A stretch of DNA of 45,917 nucleotides, from assembly GCA_014750165.1 (NCBI GenBank), contig GCA_014750165.1_4319.1; one strand, 5' to 3'. The notes below the pieces were generated by a model. It ran no database searches, was not told where the DNA came from, and worked only from the letters and a program-made list of their open reading frames with translations. Origin of the DNA: a phage. The first letter of the stretch is position 1; every line of letters starts with the position of its first letter. Shown here piece by piece: positions 13,998-41,603 of the stretch. The position numbers were made by a program, and so were the translations under genes.

Positions 13998-14064
13998 GCG
14001 TTTCGTTTCGATGGAGTAATAGTATCGCATCCTTGCGATCAGTGTTTAGCAATTAGTGCTATTC
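13998..14064 (-). promoter_or_regulatory. box/-10/leader cassette
   Basis: Minus strand reads AATAGCACTAATTGCTAAAC, 22 nt (ATCGCA..TGCGAT hairpin), TACTAT, then CCATCGAAACGAAACGC. Confidence 0.6.
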
Positions 14065-15938: not shown

Positions 15939-16252
15939 AATTACAAGGATTCACGCGTAAACTTAAATCAACGATTGGCAAAACCAATTGGACTGGCTAC
16001 GGTGACGAATATATAGTTAACCCATCGAAAGCAAGCAACCAGAGAGATATAGAAATGGTAAAGAAGATAGATTTGTACTCAGCTCACACCGTAATACTGC
16101 CTAGCTATGCTCCGGTTTTTATTGGTGTAACTTACGAAATAGCTCTTAAATTATGCGAGTCATCATATGGTAAAGACTGGAAAAATAAATCAATTAGAAT
16201 AGAAAAGACAACTAAAGAGCATATCGAAATCATCGTGGGGTTGCAAAAATGA
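15902..16252 (+). CDS. hypothetical protein (first rightward gene)
   Basis: 116-aa ORF at the strand switch. Confidence 0.6.
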   Translation: MPKNVTNGNTYTELQGFTRKLKSTIGKTNWTGYGDEYIVNPSKASNQRDIEMVKKIDLYSAHTVILPSYAPVFIGVTYEIALKLCESSYGKDWKNKSIRIEKTTKEHIEIIVGLQK

Positions 16253-17412: not shown

Positions 17413-17479
17413 ATAGCACGAATTGCCAAAACAAAGCGGGATGACTTAGGTATAGTTATCCCATCAACAACGAACGAGG
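17413..17479 (+). promoter_or_regulatory. box/-10/leader cassette
   Basis: ATAGCACGAATTGCCAAA, 22 nt (GGGAT..ATCCC hairpin), TATAGT (17451-17456), then CCATCAACAACGAACGAGG. Confidence 0.6.
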
Positions 17480-21261: not shown

Positions 21262-21292
21262 ATAGCACGAATTGCTAAGTTGGATTGTAGCA
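21262..21292 (-). promoter_or_regulatory. extended -10 promoter with an inverted orphan box at the predicted transcript start
   Basis: Minus strand reads TGcTACAAT (-10 at 21289..21284). The box (21262-21279) is in the opposite orientation to the gene and starts about 7 nt downstream of the hexamer. Confidence 0.45.
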
Positions 21293-22307: not shown

Positions 22308-22781
22308 TTACCCTTTAGCTTTTCGTGCTGCCTCGTTAGCGGCCTTAATCTTGCGCCATGATCGACACTCTGGCTTGGTGGCTAACTCAGCCTCAGTAAC
22401 CACGCGTAGCATGTGACGCTTTTTGCACCGGAGTGTCAGTGGCTTGCCGTTACCGTCAAATTGCAGGTCTGGTCGGCAGAATGTAGCACGAAAACCCTCT
22501 CCGTTTCGTTTGTAGTAGTTGTGCGACAGTTGAGCACCGCGCGCAGAAATCATACCACGCTTAAACCATTCTTCTACAGCCTGCGGAGTTACCTTTAACT
22601 TCTTTGCAATATTCGCCTTTGTGACGAAGAAATCAAGGAGCATCTCAAGCCGCGCGCGTAGCCCGGCTCTTACTTCATCTTTTAAAACGTAGTAGCCTGA
22701 AGGTCGTTTACGTTGTTTTTTGTCTTCAGTGCGGATAGTTCCGTTATTACCGTTAGTGGTTCGCTTGTCAACTGCATTCAT
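22308..22781 (-). CDS. helix-turn-helix DNA-binding protein
   Basis: ANIAKKLKVTPQAVEEWFKRG is HTH-like. Basic N- and C-termini. 157 aa. Confidence 0.6.
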   Translation of the reverse strand: MNAVDKRTTNGNNGTIRTEDKKQRKRPSGYYVLKDEVRAGLRARLEMLLDFFVTKANIAKKLKVTPQAVEEWFKRGMISARGAQLSHNYYKRNGEGFRATFCRPDLQFDGNGKPLTLRCKKRHMLRVVTEAELATKPECRSWRKIKAANEAARKAKG

Positions 22782-22793
22782 TTCATCACCTCA

Positions 22794-22840
22794 ATAGCAT
22801 TTTTTGTTAAAAGTCATTCAGATTTGATGGTAGTATTGTA
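22794..22840 (+). promoter_or_regulatory. box cassette (T-spacer variant) upstream of the helicase
   Basis: ATAGCATTTTTTGTTAAAA, a 21-nt spacer, then TAGTAT (22831-22836). Confidence 0.45.
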
Positions 22841-24877: not shown

Positions 24878-25293
24878 ACATAACAGATAAAGAATATTAC
24901 ATTGAGTTTTACCCAGGTTCAGTTAAGTCATGCCCGAAAGAGGATGACGAACAAATCTTTTGCTCTGATTGGGTTAAGTATAACTATCCAGAGATGGTAT
25001 TTTTCCACTGTGTGAATGAGGGTAAGAAAACCATTGGTCAAGCAAGAAAAGACCAGGCAAAGGGTTTGCTCAAGGGCGTATCAGACTGCATGTTTTTGAT
25101 ACCTGAATCCGTGCGAGGAAGGTATCCATTTGGCGCAATAGAGCTAAAGAGAGCTGGAAAAACACAGGCTAGCCCAGTCAGTAACGAGCAGAAGTCATTC
25201 CTGAAAAGTGTAAGGGAATCAGGAGGTTTCTCCGCTGTGGCTTACGGTCGCGAGGGTTTTCTGGCAGCATTCAAAGAAATGATTTCTAAATAG
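24874..25293 (+). CDS. VRR-NUC domain nuclease
   Basis: GTGA overlap with the helicase. GVSDCMF..IELKR matches the D..E-x-K core. The stop TAG lies inside the box. Confidence 0.7.
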   Translation: MNITDKEYYIEFYPGSVKSCPKEDDEQIFCSDWVKYNYPEMVFFHCVNEGKKTIGQARKDQAKGLLKGVSDCMFLIPESVRGRYPFGAIELKRAGKTQASPVSNEQKSFLKSVRESGGFSAVAYGREGFLAAFKEMISK

Positions 25294-25354
25294 CACGAAT
25301 TGCTAAACTCGATTTTAAAAGATGTTGTATAGTTACTTCATAGAAACGAAACAC
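25289..25354 (+). promoter_or_regulatory. box/-10/leader cassette
   Basis: AATAGCACGAATTGCTAAA, 22 nt, TATAGT (25328-25333), then TCATAGAAACGAAAC. Confidence 0.6.
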
Positions 25355-25370: not shown

Positions 25371-25577
25371 ATGAAATTAATGAAATTGAAACCTATCGAT
25401 ATCCGAGTTGGTGATTATATATATAGTGGATATACAGGAAAAAAGAAATGGCGAAGAGTATCTGAAATAATTGTTCAATCAGCATATAGGTATACATTAA
25501 TTATGAATTCGTGGAACTTATCAGCTGGTAGTTGTTGTGAATTTTTAGTAAAGGGTGTTCGTAACAATACTTTTTAA
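25371..25577 (+). CDS. hypothetical protein
   Basis: 68-aa ORF after the cassette leader and an RBS. Confidence 0.6.
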   Translation: MKLMKLKPIDIRVGDYIYSGYTGKKKWRRVSEIIVQSAYRYTLIMNSWNLSAGSCCEFLVKGVRNNTF

Positions 25578-25580
25578 TTA

Positions 25581-25645
25581 ATAGCACGAATTGCTAAAGA
25601 CTAATCGGTGAGGTGGTGTATTATCACCACATCGAAACGAAACGC
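25581..25645 (+). promoter_or_regulatory. box/-10/leader cassette
   Basis: ATAGCACGAATTGCTAAA, 22 nt, TATTAT (25619-25624) in the loop of GTGGTG..CACCAC, then ACATCGAAACGAAACGC. Confidence 0.6.
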
Positions 25646-25660
25646 AGAGAGATAAACAAA

Positions 25661-25855
25661 ATGGCTACTATCTACACTGGTAAATTCTACGAATCACGCA
25701 AAACCGGTTACGAATATGAATTAGTAATCACCCCTGATGGTTATGTTCTTGACGATGGAGATGGTTACGCATTTGATGTTAGCCCAACTTACAAAGATGA
25801 TTTAGAAACTGTTAAAAACGCATTTGGCGAAAAATTTGACGAGGTATCAGAATAA
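25661..25855 (+). CDS. hypothetical protein
   Basis: ATG 25661 follows the leader. The track start 25613 lies inside the cassette. Confidence 0.6.
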   Translation: MATIYTGKFYESRKTGYEYELVITPDGYVLDDGDGYAFDVSPTYKDDLETVKNAFGEKFDEVSE

Positions 25856-27920: not shown

Positions 27921-27985
27921 TAGCGCTTTTTGTTAAAACGATACCCGCGAAAGCGGGTATTATTGTTTTATCGAAACGGCAGGGG
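27919..27985 (+). promoter_or_regulatory. box/-10/leader cassette (T-spacer variant)
   Basis: AATAGCGCTTTTTGTTAAAA, 22 nt (ATACCCGC-GAAA-GCGGGTAT hairpin), TATTAT (27958-27963), then TATCGAAACGG. Confidence 0.55.
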
Positions 27986-28002: not shown

Positions 28003-28485
28003 ATGATTTTTTTATACTATAAGGATGGAAAGGTTTTCTGGAGAGATCCGCACTGCACGAGATTGAAGCCAGGTGATGAGGCTGGTAGTAGGCACCATAG
28101 GGGTTATTGGTATATTCGTAGATATGACAAAACAATGTCAAGGCACCGAATCGTATGGGAGATGCACAACGGAACAATACCAGACGGTATGGAGATAGAT
28201 CATATAAATCACGTGCCTGGTGATGACAGAATTGAAAACCTAAGAATGGTCACAAGAAGGCAAAACAATCAAAACAAAAAATTAAATGAAAGAAATACAA
28301 GCGGACACGTCGGGGTTAGCTGGAACAAGAAGACAAACAAATGGAGAGCAATGATAGGCATAAGGGGAGAGGACGGAAAGAGGAAAACTTTATACGTTTA
28401 TTATGGTGATTCTTTCGATGATGCGGTATCAGCAAGAAAGAAAGCAGAGGCTGAGCACTCGTTTCATGAAAATCACGGTAAATAG
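28003..28485 (+). CDS. HNH homing endonuclease with AP2-like domain (copy 2)
   Basis: HRIVWE..EIDHINHVPGDDRIENLR followed by GVSWNKKTNKWRA. The RBS-backed ATG at 27993 is out of frame by one across a T7 run (28007-28013). Confidence 0.8.
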   Translation: MIFLYYKDGKVFWRDPHCTRLKPGDEAGSRHHRGYWYIRRYDKTMSRHRIVWEMHNGTIPDGMEIDHINHVPGDDRIENLRMVTRRQNNQNKKLNERNTSGHVGVSWNKKTNKWRAMIGIRGEDGKRKTLYVYYGDSFDDAVSARKKAEAEHSFHENHGK

Positions 28486-28544
28486 CACTTTTTGCCTAAC
28501 TCATGCCGTAGAAATGCGGCATAATCACCAAATCGAAACGAGAT
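28480..28544 (+). promoter_or_regulatory. box/-10/leader cassette (T-spacer variant)
   Basis: AAATAGCACTTTTTGCCTAA, 22 nt (ATGCCG..CGGCAT hairpin), CATAAT (28520-28525), then AAATCGAAACGAGA. Confidence 0.55.
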
Positions 28545-29031: not shown

Positions 29032-29586
29032 ATGACTAAATTATTTATCCTTAATGGCCCAGCTGGAGTTGGCAAGGACACTATAGCCGATATCATGGTT
29101 GAGACTGGTGTCGCCAAAGAAAAGGTATCATTCAAGTCACCAATGTTTAACGTTGTAAAAGGAATGCTATCAAGCGATGAATTTGATGGATTCATCAAGA
29201 ATTACGACAATAGAGACTATAAGGAATCACCTCATGGATTTCTTAGCGGTATGACAGTTCGTGAATTTATGATTTGGATTAGCGAGTCTGTAATGAAGCC
29301 AGTCTTTGGTGATGATGTTTTCGGTAAAAGGCTAGCACAGTCACTTGGTGATGGTTGCTACATTTGCGCTGACGGTGGGTTTGCTAGCGAGATTAAGCCA
29401 CTGATCGACACTGGTGTTGAGGTAACGTTAATCAGGTTGCATAGGGAAGGGTACACATTTTATGGCGATAGTCGCTCATACATTCACGGTGTGTGTGCAA
29501 GAGAGATTGATGTTCATGTTGTTGATGGTGATATTAATGGAACATCAGCATTGGTAAGGCACGTAATAAATAGCACGAATTGCTAA
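29032..29586 (+). CDS. P-loop (d)NMP kinase-like protein
   Basis: NGPAGVGKDT P-loop. ATG 29032 lies 7 nt after GGAG (track start 29026). The C-terminus is box-encoded NSTNC. Confidence 0.65.
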   Translation: MTKLFILNGPAGVGKDTIADIMVETGVAKEKVSFKSPMFNVVKGMLSSDEFDGFIKNYDNRDYKESPHGFLSGMTVREFMIWISESVMKPVFGDDVFGKRLAQSLGDGCYICADGGFASEIKPLIDTGVEVTLIRLHREGYTFYGDSRSYIHGVCAREIDVHVVDGDINGTSALVRHVINSTNC

Positions 29587-29632
29587 AGATAATATTAAAA
29601 ACTGGGTTATCATTAACACATCGAAACGAGAT
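29569..29632 (+). promoter_or_regulatory. box/-10/leader cassette
   Basis: AATAGCACGAATTGCTAAA, 22 nt, TATCAT (29608-29613), then ACATCGAAACGAGA. Confidence 0.6.
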
Positions 29633-33589: not shown

Positions 33590-33655
33590 CATCTCCCGTT
33601 TCGATGGAAAGATAATACCGCATCCTTGCGATTTCGTTTTAGCAATTCGTGCTGT
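33590..33655 (-). promoter_or_regulatory. box/-10/leader cassette
   Basis: Minus strand reads ACAGCACGAATTGCTAAAA, 22 nt (TCGCA..TGCG hairpin), TATTAT (33617..33612), then CCATCGAAACGGGAG. Confidence 0.6.
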
Positions 33656-34699: not shown

Positions 34700-34768
34700 T
34701 ATCTCCTCGTTTTGATGAGTTAACTATATCCTCCATGACCCCCAATGTCTTTGGCAAAAAGTGCTATT
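34700..34768 (-). promoter_or_regulatory. box/-10/leader cassette (T-spacer variant)
   Basis: Minus strand reads AATAGCACTTTTTGCCAAAG, 23 nt, TATAGT (34728..34723), then CTCATCAAAACGAGGAG. Confidence 0.55.
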
Positions 34769-35302: not shown

Positions 35303-35330
35303 TTGATAACGTGTATATGTGTGTTATTAT
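35303..35330 (+). promoter_or_regulatory. sigma70-like promoter for the rightward small-gene operon
   Basis: TTGATA (35303-35308), 16 nt, TATTAT (35325-35330), then a CATCTTAACGAAGGG leader. Confidence 0.5.
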
Positions 35331-35372
35331 GGATTCATCTTAACGAAGGGCAACCAATCAGGAGTAATGAAT

Positions 35373-35988: not shown

Positions 35989-36215
35989 TGCTTATAAAAT
36001 GCGTGTATGCAAGGCAAGCCAATCACCACAACCTTTCAGTTGTAAATGGTGGGATATACTCGGCAAAGCCAATCACTCGCTTTAATGGCTCATACTACAT
36101 CAAGGTTGATGGCAATGAGTACATGGTGAAGACGATAGGTGAAGCTCTTATGATAAAAAGCCTTGGCGTCATAATGGCTAAATTCGAAATCTTTCACAAT
36201 AGCACTAATTGCTAA
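35988..36215 (+). CDS. hypothetical protein ending in NSTNC
   Basis: 75-aa ORF whose C-terminus is encoded by the box. Confidence 0.55.
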   Translation: MLIKCVYARQANHHNLSVVNGGIYSAKPITRFNGSYYIKVDGNEYMVKTIGEALMIKSLGVIMAKFEIFHNSTNC

Positions 36216-36263
36216 ACCCGCTCCGGCAGGTTTTGTTATAGTTGGTTCACACCAAACGAGAGG
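36198..36263 (+). promoter_or_regulatory. box/-10/leader cassette
   Basis: AATAGCACTAATTGCTAAA, 22 nt, TATAGT (36237-36242), then CACACCAAACGAGAGG. Confidence 0.6.
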
Positions 36264-36701: not shown

Positions 36702-36835
36702 TTTACATCCATACTTACTACACTGGGAAGTTTAATAGCGTTAAGCATTCCAGTGTTCACGATAGCTACGAGAGCGCAAAGGCCCAATGGTTGGTTCTTG
36801 GTGGTGATATCAATTCATATAGAGTCGCTGAATAG
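36698..36835 (+). CDS. hypothetical 45-aa protein
   Basis: ATGA overlap at its start, and its stop TAG lies inside the box. Below the ORF-track cutoff. Confidence 0.45.
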   Translation: MIYIHTYYTGKFNSVKHSSVHDSYESAKAQWLVLGGDINSYRVAE

Positions 36836-36897
36836 CACGAATTGCTAAAACAGTATTGGGGTAATTTGGTATAGTTACCCCATCGAAACGAACGAGG
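36831..36897 (+). promoter_or_regulatory. box/-10/leader cassette
   Basis: AATAGCACGAATTGCTAAAA, 22 nt, TATAGT (36870-36875) in the loop of GGGGTAA..TTACCCC, then CATCGAAACGAACGAGG. Confidence 0.6.
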
Positions 36898-37778: not shown

Positions 37779-37970
37779 ATGTGGATTAAGTGCAGTGTTC
37801 GGATGCCTGAGCATTTCAGTTATGTTATCATTACAGATGGCGAGCATGTCGAGGTTAAATGGTGGAATGGTGACAAATGGGATTGTTGGGCGGATTGTTG
37901 GGTGGGTAACTCGAATATCTGTAGCGACGATGTTACCCACTGGATGCCGCTACCAGTAGCCCCTAAATAG
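37779..37970 (+). CDS. hypothetical Trp-rich protein
   Basis: 63-aa ORF after AGGAGAGGA. The stop TAG lies inside the box. Confidence 0.55.
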   Translation: MWIKCSVRMPEHFSYVIITDGEHVEVKWWNGDKWDCWADCWVGNSNICSDDVTHWMPLPVAPK

Positions 37971-38032
37971 CAAGAATTGCTAAATGGAGTCGCCACGGAT
38001 GGCATACAATAACCACATCAACACAACGAGAG
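37965..38032 (+). promoter_or_regulatory. box/-10/leader cassette
   Basis: AAATAGCAAGAATTGCTAAA, 22 nt (GCCA-CGGA-TGGC hairpin), TACAAT (38005-38010), then CACATCAACACAACGAGAG. Confidence 0.55.
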
Positions 38033-38389: not shown

Positions 38390-38463
38390 CAATCTGGTTT
38401 ATCGCAGGGATGATTACTTGGGCTTACTTTTTAATCGTTTAGATGGAGATTGTTAAAAAGAGC

Positions 38464-38658: not shown

Positions 38659-38736
38659 GCTCTGCTAGCTCAATTGGATAGCAGCAACGACCTTCTAAGT
38701 CGTAGGTTACTGGTTCGAGGCCAGTGCAGAGCGCCA
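38659..38736 (+). tRNA. tRNA-Arg (anticodon UCU), CCA encoded
   Basis: Acceptor GCTCTGC/GCAGAGC, anticodon stem ACGAC/GTCGT with loop CTTCTAA, T arm ACTGG-TTCGAGG-CCAGT, discriminator G followed by CCA. Confidence 0.9.
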
Positions 38737-39571: not shown

Positions 39572-41143
39572 ATGAGTGATTTAATCGTGTGGGATGAACT
39601 TACATACGCAGAAAAGATGGCTATCAAGGCCATCTCTGAGCATAGTTTCGAGGGGTTCTTGCGGTGTTTCTTCCAGATAACGCAGGGTGAGAGATTTAAA
39701 ATGAATTGGCACGCGAAGTACCTTTGCCGCGTCATAGATGAGATTCTTGATGGTAAGAGAAAGGACACCATCATAAACATAGCTCCGGGATCTGCCAAAA
39801 CCGAACTGTTTAGCATCCACTTCCCTGTATATAGCATGATTAAGATTAAGAAGGTTAGAAATCTTAGTTTGTCTTTCTCTGATTCATTGGTGAAGCGCAA
39901 CTCAAAGCGTGTTCGTGACCTGATAAAGTCAAAGGAGTTCCAGGAGCTTTGGCCCTGCAAGTTTGGAACATGCAGGGATGACGAAATTCAAGTGCTGGAT
40001 GAGAATGGTAAAGTTAGGTTTGAGTCTATATCTAAGGCGATGGCGGGGCAGGTGACGGGAAGCAGGGGAGGCTACATGACTGACGATTATAGTGGTTGCA
40101 TAATGCTGGATGACCCACTAAAACCTGATGACGCGCTAAGTAATGTAAGAAGAGAGGCTGTCAACATGCTTCTCAAGAACACAATTCGTTCACGTCGAGC
40201 TAGCTCAGTAAAGGGAAAGGAAACGCCAATACTTGCCGTGCAGCAAAGACTTCATGTCCTGGACACTAGCCACTTCATGGAGTCAGGGCAGATGGGCATC
40301 AAGTTCGACGTAGTGAAAGTTCCAGCCATAGTCACGGAGGATTACGCCGACACGCTCCCTGATTGGATTAAGCAGCAATTTATTGATGATGTTCTTTCGT
40401 CACCATTTGTTGAGAGGGATGGGGTTAAGTATTACAGCTACTTCCCAGCAAAGGAATCAATAGAAGACTTGATGGCAATGCGGGATGCTGACCCTTATAC
40501 ATTCCTAAGTCAGTACGCTCAAGAACCAGTAGCACTTGGCGGCAATCTGATTAACGTGGATTGGTTCCAGCGCCTTAGCGATACATTCAGACCTCCCGCT
40601 AAGTATGATTATCGATTCATCACATGCGATACTGCGATGACCACAAAGAGTTATAGTGACTTCTCTGTACTTCAGTTGTGGGGATATAAGGATGCTAAGA
40701 TTTACCTGATAGACCAGCGCAGAGGTAAATTTGAAGCACCAGAGTTGGAGGCTGAACTACTGGACTTCGAGAAGAAATCAAGGGCAACCAGTCAGTCAGA
40801 TGGCATCCTCCGAAAGATCATCATCGAGAAGAAAGCGTCTGGTATCGGCCTGATTCAATCAGCTGGCAGGGTTATGCGAACACCGATAGAGTCATACGTA
40901 CCGGATAATGACAAGCTAACCAGGGTGATGAGTGCACTACCACAGATTAAGGCTGGTAACGTAGTTCTTCCAGAGTCATCGCCGTGGCTAAACGGATTGC
41001 TCACTGAGGTTGCGGCTTTTACGGCAGATGACTCGCATAAGCACGACGACCAAATTGACTGTCTAACAATGGCGGTAAACCTTGTACTTAACATCGCGGA
41101 TGATCCTAAGGCGAGACTAATGCGCATAGCAGGAATTAAATAG
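39572..41143 (+). CDS. terminase large subunit
   Basis: 523 aa. ATPase motifs (NIAPGSAKTE, IMLDDP) and a C-terminal nuclease region (..HDDQIDC). The stop TAG lies inside the box. Confidence 0.9.
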   Translation: MSDLIVWDELTYAEKMAIKAISEHSFEGFLRCFFQITQGERFKMNWHAKYLCRVIDEILDGKRKDTIINIAPGSAKTELFSIHFPVYSMIKIKKVRNLSLSFSDSLVKRNSKRVRDLIKSKEFQELWPCKFGTCRDDEIQVLDENGKVRFESISKAMAGQVTGSRGGYMTDDYSGCIMLDDPLKPDDALSNVRREAVNMLLKNTIRSRRASSVKGKETPILAVQQRLHVLDTSHFMESGQMGIKFDVVKVPAIVTEDYADTLPDWIKQQFIDDVLSSPFVERDGVKYYSYFPAKESIEDLMAMRDADPYTFLSQYAQEPVALGGNLINVDWFQRLSDTFRPPAKYDYRFITCDTAMTTKSYSDFSVLQLWGYKDAKIYLIDQRRGKFEAPELEAELLDFEKKSRATSQSDGILRKIIIEKKASGIGLIQSAGRVMRTPIESYVPDNDKLTRVMSALPQIKAGNVVLPESSPWLNGLLTEVAAFTADDSHKHDDQIDCLTMAVNLVLNIADDPKARLMRIAGIK

Positions 41144-41206
41144 CACGAATTGCTAAACTAAGTCGCCACGGATGGCGTATAGTTACTTCATCGAAACGAG
41201 AGGAGA
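41140..41206 (+). promoter_or_regulatory. box/-10/leader cassette
   Basis: ATAGCACGAATTGCTAAA, 22 nt (CGCCA-CGGA-TGGCG hairpin), TATAGT (41178-41183), then TCATCGAAACGAGAGGAG. Confidence 0.6.
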
Positions 41207-41213
41207 TAAACAA

Positions 41214-41603
41214 ATGACTACAATTTATTCAAAGGCATTATATCTTGGTAACATTGATAATGAAGACTGTGGATTCACAGTGGGTAAGAAATATAGGGTT
41301 AACCGTTTTGATACTGATGATGAAAACTATTTTTGGTGCGTAGATGATCATGATGGTTACCGTTACATAAAAAACGGAGAATTCCACAAGTTTGATATCC
41401 GCGAAGAGGGCGAGGGTTTCTTAACTGAAAGCGAATGCGCAGCCAAAGCCACTGACAATAATAAAAAACCATATCTAAGATATTACATAAACGGACATGA
41501 GGTTGACGTGATTGAGTTCGGAAATGTGGGTCGTACTGTATATGCGCTTGATCGGGATGGCGTAAAGTGCGACACAATCAAGTTCGAAGTAAAATTCGAG
41601 TAA
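41214..41603 (+). CDS. hypothetical protein (moron between TerL and portal)
   Basis: ATG 41214 follows the leader. 129 aa with its own cassette and terminator. Confidence 0.55.
   Translation: MTTIYSKALYLGNIDNEDCGFTVGKKYRVNRFDTDDENYFWCVDDHDGYRYIKNGEFHKFDIREEGEGFLTESECAAKATDNNKKPYLRYYINGHEVDVIEFGNVGRTVYALDRDGVKCDTIKFEVKFE

Follow-up and report, generated by a model that had tools for sequence, protein, structure and literature searches.

A conserved block at a fixed distance from the -10 hexamer, a candidate start-site and initial transcribed sequence module, in repeat-bearing cassettes of T1-like phages

The phage contig GCA_014750165.1_4319.1 (NCBI GenBank assembly GCA_014750165.1; its 45,917 nucleotides (nt) are the whole stretch analysed, called the window hereafter) carries an 11-nt block, CATCGAAACGA, located 5 nt downstream of -10-like hexamers in a series of intergenic cassettes. 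The reading that we favour, at roughly even chances, is that this block is a module combining start site and initial transcribed sequence (ITS), tuned for the sigma70 RNA polymerase of the host. It would provide C at -1, A at +1 and then the first ten transcribed bases of the main promoter type of the phage. The window is essentially the whole genome of a T1-like (Rtp-like) coliphage of the Drexlerviridae: its gene order parallels that of phage Rtp, and an 8-kb stretch is 83–91% identical to Rtp-like coliphages.

In the window, CATCGAAACGA is present in six exact copies, and in 11 copies when one mismatch is allowed, against 0.71 ± 0.87 in shuffled sequences. Taken alone, the 11-mer is weakly enriched at up to two mismatches (23 occurrences for 12.2 expected). 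The composite made of TAnnnT, five free nucleotides and the motif gave 13 matches at the same tolerance for 0.33 expected, in agreement with the original prediction of a repeated segment lying right after the -10-like hexamer. All copies with at most one mismatch are located 5 nt past such a hexamer (TAnnnT, or CATAAT at 28531), with the exception of a one-mismatch copy on the minus strand at 38435 that has no cassette and is probably due to chance. The strand of each cassette copy is that of the gene downstream. The A of the motif is the seventh base past TAnnnT in the 13 window sites, within the 6–9 nt range compatible with a start; the usual sigma70 start position is 7 nt past the hexamer. 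Among 19 well-formed cassettes, 11 carry the motif within two mismatches and three others a looser form, so that the earlier count of 13 or more cassettes was a fair one. The coordinates given with it were right to 1–2 nt, two minus-strand values falling inside or just past the matched span, and the copy at 25339 had been missed.

The focal cassette, on the plus strand, has the following layout. The core of a repeat of a 21-nt family, TAGCACGAATTGCTAAA (41141–41157), contains a palindrome, TAGCA-N5-TGCTA, centred at -42 from the inferred start. A spacer hairpin, CGCCA-cgga-TGGCG (41164–41177), lies between this repeat and the -10-type hexamer TATAGT (41178–41183). The 5-nt discriminator tactt (41184–41188) and an exact CATCGAAACGA (41189–41199) follow, the A at 41190 being the inferred +1. 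Directly after the motif, a GAGGAG resembling a ribosome-binding site (RBS; 41200–41205) precedes the ATG (41214) of an Rtp22-like virion gene, and the homologue rtp22 of phage Rtp has the same layout. A coding explanation of the block was rejected: a mechanically defined open reading frame (ORF), 41172–41603, spans the motif, but its ATG lies in the spacer hairpin and has no RBS, GAGGAG standing ahead of the ATG at 41214.

The other exact copies are found, again 5 nt past the hexamer and on the plus strand unless stated, at 2390–2400 (TATAGT at 2379–2384, repeat at 2342), 14003–14013 on the minus strand (TACTAT, repeat at 14045–14061 on the same strand, ahead of a Rtp45-like lipoprotein gene), 25630–25640 (TATTAT, repeat at 25582), 29619–29629 (TATCAT, repeat at 29571) and 36881–36891 (TATAGT flanked by the inverted repeat GGGGTAA/TTACCCC, repeat at 36833). 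One mismatch separates from the motif CATAGAAACGA at 25339–25349 (TATAGT, repeat at 25291), AATCGAAACGA at 28531–28541 (CATAAT, repeat at 28483) and, on the minus strand, CATCGAAACGG at 33596–33606 (TATTAT, repeat at 33638–33654) and CATCAAAACGA at 34707–34717 (TATAGT, repeat at 34750–34766). TATCGAAACGG at 27969–27979 has two mismatches; it follows TATTAT, and the spacer of this cassette holds a terminator-like hairpin (27940–27961). The looser forms that had been announced are present at the same offset: CATCAACAACGA at 17462–17473 (cassette at 17414, Erf gene), CACACCAAACGA at 36248–36259 (cassette at 36200) and CATCAACACAACGA at 38016–38029 (cassette at 37968).

We then assembled a family set from six complete genomes (the window, Rtp, T1, Klebsiella phage KOX1, Cronobacter phage CS01 and phage Motto) and 72 loci around a conserved helix-turn-helix (HTH) regulator. 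This set yielded 457 unique repeat-bearing segments, of which 416, from about 78 relatives, have a -10. The order of elements is a 21-nt repeat, aaATAGCACnnnTTGnTAAAA, a variable spacer of 20 nt that often forms a hairpin, the -10 (TAnnnT), the 5-nt discriminator and the motif. With the repeat as the sole anchor of the alignment, the -10 is seen at offset 37 and CA at 48–49, the intervening 20 nt being nearly information-free. In about 73% of the unique cassettes (305/416), the start of the repeat precedes the motif by 48 nt and the inferred +1 by 49 nt; in 95%, the distance is the same to within 1 nt. Profiles anchored on the -10 show C in 74% and A in 74% of cassettes at -1 and +1, then T (48%), C (53%) and G (44%) at +2 to +4, A at +5 to +7 (66–69%), C at +8 (52%) and A at +10 (64%). 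The motif, at up to two mismatches, occupies the exact offset in 137 of the 416 cassettes, versus 0–4 for offsets shifted by 1–30 nt. The suggested search of related phages for the 11-mer was thus productive, the motif being found in Rtp (5 of 19 cassettes), T1 (2/21, mostly degenerate forms), KOX1 (6/16), CS01 (2/14) and Motto (8/17), in addition to the window (11/19), across genera whose HTH regulator is only about 51–63% identical to that of the window. The motif is one of several leader classes, others being CACACCAAC... and ATTGAAGCGAACCAATCAGGAG.

When cassettes are grouped by the gene that they precede, identity within groups is 0.8–1.0 in the motif columns, versus 0.65–0.78 for the spacer and the distal leader. 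The motif block is under a constraint of its own, weaker than that on the repeat and on the invariant bases of the -10. This block does not depend on what lies downstream: the motif is separated from the ATG by 10–25 nt in the window, and its C from the start codon by 20–36 nt family-wide, with unrelated sequence in between. The RBS may start right after +10 and never overlaps the block. In Rtp, cassettes head genes of several functional classes (replication/recombination, lysis-region, virion and homing-endonuclease genes).

It could be argued that the block has no function of its own and is simply the heritage of an ancestral cassette, multiplied by duplication, that has not yet decayed. The cassettes are clearly paralogous, loose variants exist and the T1 forms are mostly degenerate, as this explanation would have it. 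However, the block is kept in paralogues and in groups of orthologues while the adjoining spacer, discriminator and leader have been randomised, it persists across genera whose regulators are about 51–63% identical, and it occurs in unrelated promoter architectures. We consider a mere relic extremely unlikely.

The motif is not confined to T1-like phages. A scan of viral contigs for TAnnnT-N5-CATCGAAACGA matched at least 120 stretches, and 126 matches among those listed were analysed, of which only proportions are used here. Only 12 of these listed matches have the T1-type repeat. In 47 of the listed matches, the motif lies in phi80/HK639-type lambdoid phages, after pL promoters of at least five operator types. 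The pL sequence of phi80 is TTGACC-17-TTTAAT-tactc-CATCGAAACGAAAC, and the C of the motif is the last base of the annotated O-L operator region (contig L321, 204–255). In HK639, 5 nt separate the end of the annotated putative pL from the motif, and a putL-like RNA begins 68 nt after the motif (contig L200, 153–200). A -35 is located at 16–18 bp in 27 of 36 listed members of this pL group. The phi80/HK639-type promoters resemble the T1-like cassettes by the identical CATCGAAACGAAAC placed 5 nt past the -10; unlike them, they have a canonical -35 and repressor operators, and are present in single copy. Their motif runs into a conserved non-coding leader, with, in HK639, the antiterminator RNA further downstream. 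In about 36 unique listed contigs of this type, at least five unrelated versions of the operator and -35/-10 region are followed by a transcript start that is always CATCGAAACGAAACATCGACAGCTGAGCGAAGTTAGCCAGCGGCG; since operators vary whereas this start is constant, the immunity region has its mosaic boundary where transcription starts. No annotation covers the conserved leader that precedes the annotated putL-like RNA.

Sixty-six other unique listed matches remain, with a TTGnnn -35 at 16–18 bp in 20 cases, compared to 1–4 at control spacings, and an RBS and start codon within 45 nt in 31. Vibriophage KVP40 has five early promoter-terminator cassettes with the motif, confirmed at 100% identity, an unclassified 109-kb contig has four copies, and several high-GC contigs have it as well. 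What follows the motif in these other phages ranges from an RBS and ATG to non-coding leaders. In three high-GC contigs (L088, L131 and L195), a hairpin is followed by CTG-TAGACT-N5-CATCGAAACGAAACGA(C/A)C..ATG with no obvious RBS, and the motif block forms an A-rich island in GC-rich DNA. These three contigs suggest that phages of other Proteobacteria use the block, too.

Related starts are annotated at promoters of phage T7 that are served by the host polymerase. The annotated start of A1 is the A of CCATCGAGAGG, with an RNA beginning AUCGA, and that of A3 is the A of CACATGAAACGA (CACATGAAACGACAG), with the transcript start AUGAAACGA, AU-GAAACGA. The block thus resembles the ITS of strong host-polymerase phage promoters (T7 A1, T7 A3, T5 N25) in lying directly after the -10 and discriminator, in its CA-T start and in being rich in purines and A and poor in T. 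It differs from published ITS in its repeated use: a single genome has the exact 11- to 14-mer at many promoters, and several phage groups without relation to one another share it. As the same block stands at ordinary -35/-10 promoters of unrelated phages, it appears to be a promoter part rather than a T1-specific signal.

The +1 would be the A of the motif, by analogy with the annotated T7 A1 and A3 starts and with the place where the phi80 O-L region ends. The block would act on the host RNA polymerase, with CA setting the start 7 nt past the -10. After the +1 A the motif reads TCGAAACGA; its +4 to +7 bases are all purines, in an A-rich and T-poor stretch, so that no pyrimidine-purine step would occur at the point where the nascent RNA runs into the sigma finger. 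The polymerase would then make the first ~10 nt and leave the promoter fast, and the ten-nt length of the block may parallel the RNA length at which the polymerase does so. An activator, probably the HTH protein encoded at 22308–22781, would bind the 21-nt repeat, whose palindrome is at -42.

This proposal is consistent with published work on promoter escape, in which the ITS is known to determine both the escape rate and the strength of a promoter (PMC5961368). In a dataset of 262,144 variants, ITS positions +2 to +10 changed escape about 1000-fold (PMC5961368). The original prediction had started from the premise that a promoter does not require a conserved initial transcribed sequence; an effect of some three orders of magnitude makes this premise wrong. 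Slow escape goes with two or three T among the initial seven bases and with TG or TA at +5/+6, GA and GG favour escape, and purine content tracks productive yield (PMC5961368). Over the cassettes, T makes up 11% and A 47% of positions +3 to +10, and AA or GA is found at +5/+6 in 58%, an agreement with the published rules that concerns composition only. No conserved sequence motif has been reported in published ITS work.

Several observations weigh against this interpretation. Start-site or transcriptome data for T1-like phages (Drexlerviridae) were not found in the literature searched, and +1 is deduced from geometry and analogy. Composition leaves unexplained why C+3, G+4, C+8 and G+9 are kept, as well as the use of the sequence by only some lineages. 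CG steps slightly disfavoured escape in two of the three promoter contexts studied, an effect measured at +5/+6 and not at +3/+4 or +8/+9 (PMC5961368). T1 itself has the motif in just two of its 21 cassettes. In the phi80/HK639 group, the leader after the motif is conserved too, and the motif may owe its conservation in these phages to being part of this leader. The idea that the block is a universal optimum of consensus promoters was rejected: in an unbiased sample of 129 TTGACA-17-TATAAT-N5-CA sites of viral contigs, taken from a scan that matched at least 120 stretches, the trend is one of general A-richness with T at +2; T is found at +2 in 56% and A in 36–53% over +3 to +10, and only three sites are within two mismatches of the motif. 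The motif is recurrent in certain lineages, not universal. Finally, a fixed placement relative to the start in DNA is also a fixed placement at the 5′ end of the RNA, and computation cannot separate a role at the RNA level from one at the promoter.

A second possibility, which we regard as rather doubtful, is that the motif works as RNA, AUCGAAACGA(AAC) at the 5′-triphosphate end being read by a host component. Candidate readers are the decay entry by RppH and RNase E, the ribosome or S1 as they load on very short leaders, and the polymerase that is making the transcript; phage primary transcripts would live longer or be better translated. The motif is strand-specific and its place is always the inferred 5′ end, the leaders are short (20–36 nt from C to start codon) with an RBS that can start right after +10, and the specific bases C3, G4, C8 and G9 are kept beyond the composition bias. 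Furthermore, the first 70 nt of all 11 window transcripts fold worse than shuffled sequences (z from +0.6 to +1.6), which fits selection for an open 5′ end. The recurrence in unrelated phages would require a host-encoded reader, for which an RNA-binding factor would do as well as the polymerase. Against an RNA role, there is no fixed distance to the RBS or start codon, and the motif also heads transcripts without a nearby gene (the pL leaders of phi80 and HK639, T7 A3). Complementarity to 16S rRNA is at chance level (8 of 10 positions including G-U, versus a mean of 8.09 for shuffled motifs), as is complementarity to 23S rRNA. A translational enhancer complementary to rRNA was rejected in view of this chance-level 16S match and of an ATG spacing that varies over 10–25 nt. 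A UCG-AAA-CGA hairpin within the motif was rejected as well, the natural variants ATAGAAACGA, ATCAAAACGA and ATCGAAACAA breaking it without compensation instead of covarying. No common structure involving the motif, including pairing with the leader or RBS, was detected in the 11 window transcripts, and no Rfam 15 family matched the motif at gathering score, the only match in the window being a tRNA (38659–38733).

A wider form of the same idea, which we judge unlikely, is that AUCGAAACGA(AAC) is a 5′-terminal RNA signature shared by primary transcripts of many unrelated phages of Proteobacteria (T1-like, phi80-type pL, KVP40 and others) and read by the polymerase, the ribosome or the 5′-end decay machinery of the host, privileging phage over host transcripts.

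The original prediction had placed the segment at the 5′ end of transcripts and had proposed that it acts after initiation. Its placement is plausible, in view of the A 7 nt past the hexamer and of the +1 annotated or implied in T7 A1/A3 and phi80 pL; a T1-specific reader is unlikely, and a host factor may read the RNA 5′ end in a post-initiation role. Recognition by a translational regulator or RNase, or a processing site, fits poorly with the identical 11- to 14-mer at canonical promoters lacking the T1-type repeat, some of them before non-coding leaders; phage-specific RNA readers likewise agree poorly with a variable RBS distance and with the finding that no structure or rRNA pairing involves the motif. 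Antitermination of the put type is excluded, as no conserved RNA lies downstream. Cassettes are unrelated after about +14 and their folds are weaker than those of shuffled sequences, which led us to reject a put-type antiterminator (a two-stem RNA of ~70 nt); the motif was also discarded as a part of the lambdoid put RNA, the annotated putL-like RNA of HK639 beginning 68 nt downstream. A sigma-dependent pause of the lambda Q type is excluded too: ATCGAAACGA has a single T (+2) and hence no TAnnnT, that is, no -10-like hexamer, and the downstream sequence is variable.

A related explanation is that the leader is the target of a factor encoded by T1-like phages, which could repress translation, cut or process the RNA as an endoribonuclease or processing enzyme, or bind the DNA at +1 to +10 as a regulator. 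A sequence common to many genes of one genome is regulon-like, and T1-like phages encode many small proteins of unknown function. The 21-nt repeats are also best preserved in motif-bearing cassettes (0.53 versus 1.37 mismatches, p = 3e-14). Nevertheless, the identical sequence stands at the same place in phages unrelated to T1 that lack the 21-nt repeat (phi80, HK639, KVP40, the 109-kb and high-GC contigs), its frequency, from 2/21 in T1 to 11/19 in the window, would be odd for an essential regulatory site, and the cassettes precede genes of several functional classes. Such a factor seems very unlikely.

Returning to the start-site and ITS module that we favour, we examined the promoter elements that accompany it. 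No -35 was found at 16–18 bp in 12 T1-like cassettes (0/12), the TTGCTA of the repeat lying instead 21–23 bp from the -10. Presence of the motif showed no link with -10 quality (4.91 versus 4.84 matches to TATAAT). The window shows no enrichment of canonical -35/-10 sites (28 versus 36.9 in shuffled sequences), which agrees with the report of only three such promoters in phage TLS. Calculated from the family profiles, the centre of the palindrome TAGCA-N5-TGCTA is located 42 nt before the A of CATCG. Class II activators, and lambda cI at PRM, have such a geometry, and on this analogy the cassettes would be promoters of the activator type. A candidate binder of the palindromic repeat is probably the conserved 157-residue protein encoded at 22308–22781 on the minus strand, which has a weak Cro-like HTH (Pfam P22_Cro, E = 0.0015, below the curated cutoff). 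Its homologues are found in 825 phage records, almost all T1-like, and its gene diverges from the cassette of a helicase gene at 22795.

The 21-nt repeat itself was previously known in TLS, T1, Rtp and Rogue1, about 76 nt before start codons and oriented in the direction of transcription; its function was left open between a stoperator, an enhancer site and a UP-like element (PMC11447400). The T1-type repeat of that study is part of the same cassette and obeys the same orientation rule, and the -10-linked CATCGAAACGA block is not mentioned there. What is new is thus a -10-linked, sequence-conserved initial transcribed block in a PeSL-like cassette without a -35, only the repeat having been known before (PMC11447400). 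A 2024 genome paper lists the function of the T1-type 21-nt intergenic repeat as an open question. The repeat stands in a rigid arrangement with a -10 and with a start block that is shared by ordinary host-polymerase promoters of other phages, which argues that the cassettes are activator-type promoters with a predictable start, and the question of the repeat becomes open to simple in vitro and reporter experiments. The recurrence across families of an exact 11- to 14-mer at +1 was unexpected. Its presence in several unrelated phage groups would make it a candidate natural ITS optimum, where published ITS work reports no natural consensus, and strong synthetic promoters could be built with the block as a compact part. 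T1-like phages often contaminate laboratories and industrial processes.

Spacer hairpins of at least 5 bp are present in 24.8% of cassettes, versus 3.3% in shuffled sequences, and inverted arms flanking the -10 in 5.8% versus 2.0% (for instance GGGGTAA..TATAGT..TTACCCC). The hairpin arms vary from one cassette to another, the pairing thus being kept while the sequence is not. In the RNA, the hairpin may end or stabilise the transcript coming from upstream, or it may act at the DNA level; terminator-like predictions were obtained in the window at 27940 and 33632. GC spacer hairpins, or inverted repeats around the -10, were noted in the window at 41164–41177, 27940–27961, 33617–33632 (minus strand) and 36857–36880, and in T1 (L002) at 2270, 3536 and 4345. 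One such hairpin, CCCGC-gaaa-GCGGG followed by TATTATTGTTTT, is terminator-like.

These features recall the PeSL and PmSL elements of T4-type phages, described (PMC2839356, PMC4122927) as carrying a stem-loop between, over or after the promoter boxes and mediating gene shuffling. Both these elements (Arbiol 2010; Comeau 2014) and the T1-like cassettes are short, intergenic, placed ahead of small genes and closed by an RBS and start codon, with a stem-loop over or next to the promoter, often with GGGG...CCCC arms, and an association with indels. The KVP40 promoters that share the motif are of the PeSL type. The T1-like cassettes differ from PeSLs in having the 21-nt palindromic repeat instead of a -35 at 16–18 bp, and in their phage family and presumed activator; the PeSL papers are not known to single out the transcribed block. 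A clean indel of 291 nt (25371–25661 of the window) distinguishes the window from its relative L006 and comprises a 68-residue ORF and one cassette. Both ends of this single case are located inside a duplicated CAT(A/C)GAAACGAAAC..AGAGAGA segment made of motif and leader. Its signature is that described for PeSL-mediated excision or insertion.

The motif could be mainly a patch of homology in mobile PeSL-like promoter-terminator cassettes, through which recombination would swap small genes and homogenise the blocks. The 291-nt indel with both ends in duplicated motif and leader is the type of event expected, orthologous genes are found with different spacers and -10s and the same motif, PeSLs, including stem-loops over the promoter, are documented for such events (PMC2839356, PMC4122927), and the PeSL-type promoters of KVP40 have the motif. 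However, 11 nt amid unrelated sequence are short for homologous exchange, for which the 21-nt repeat would be a better substrate, and gene conversion would also homogenise the spacer and discriminator, yet these are nearly information-free. We find this explanation quite unlikely as the main one, although recombination between cassettes may help to keep the block uniform. Recombination explains neither the fixed -10 offset nor the single-copy promoters (phi80 pL and T7).

Some other sites of the window deserve mention. CATCTTAACGA, with two mismatches, is found at 35336–35346 on the plus strand, 5 nt past the -10 of a canonical TTGATA-16-TATTAT promoter-like site (35303–35330) without a 21-nt repeat. 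This site, one of few of its kind, has a TG upstream and is located where the two arms of small genes diverge; it may serve early in infection as a promoter that needs no activator. At 16012–16033 (plus strand), TATAGT-taacc-CATCGAAAGCA precedes an RBS and ATG with no recognisable 21-nt repeat at the usual distance, the nearest repeat-like sequence being a degenerate ATTGGCAAAA about 31 nt upstream. Conversely, a well-formed 21-nt repeat at 21263–21279 (plus strand) is located on the strand opposite to its neighbours, the tail fibre and primase genes (both minus), and a bidirectional terminator (AAAAAAACCTCCCGAAGGAGGTT) follows it in place of the -10 and motif, as also in Rtp (33763) and T1 (34903). 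Finally, the tRNA gene at 38659–38733 (plus strand) was matched by the Rfam tRNA family with 52.9 bits; one arginyl-tRNA has been reported for T1-like phages.

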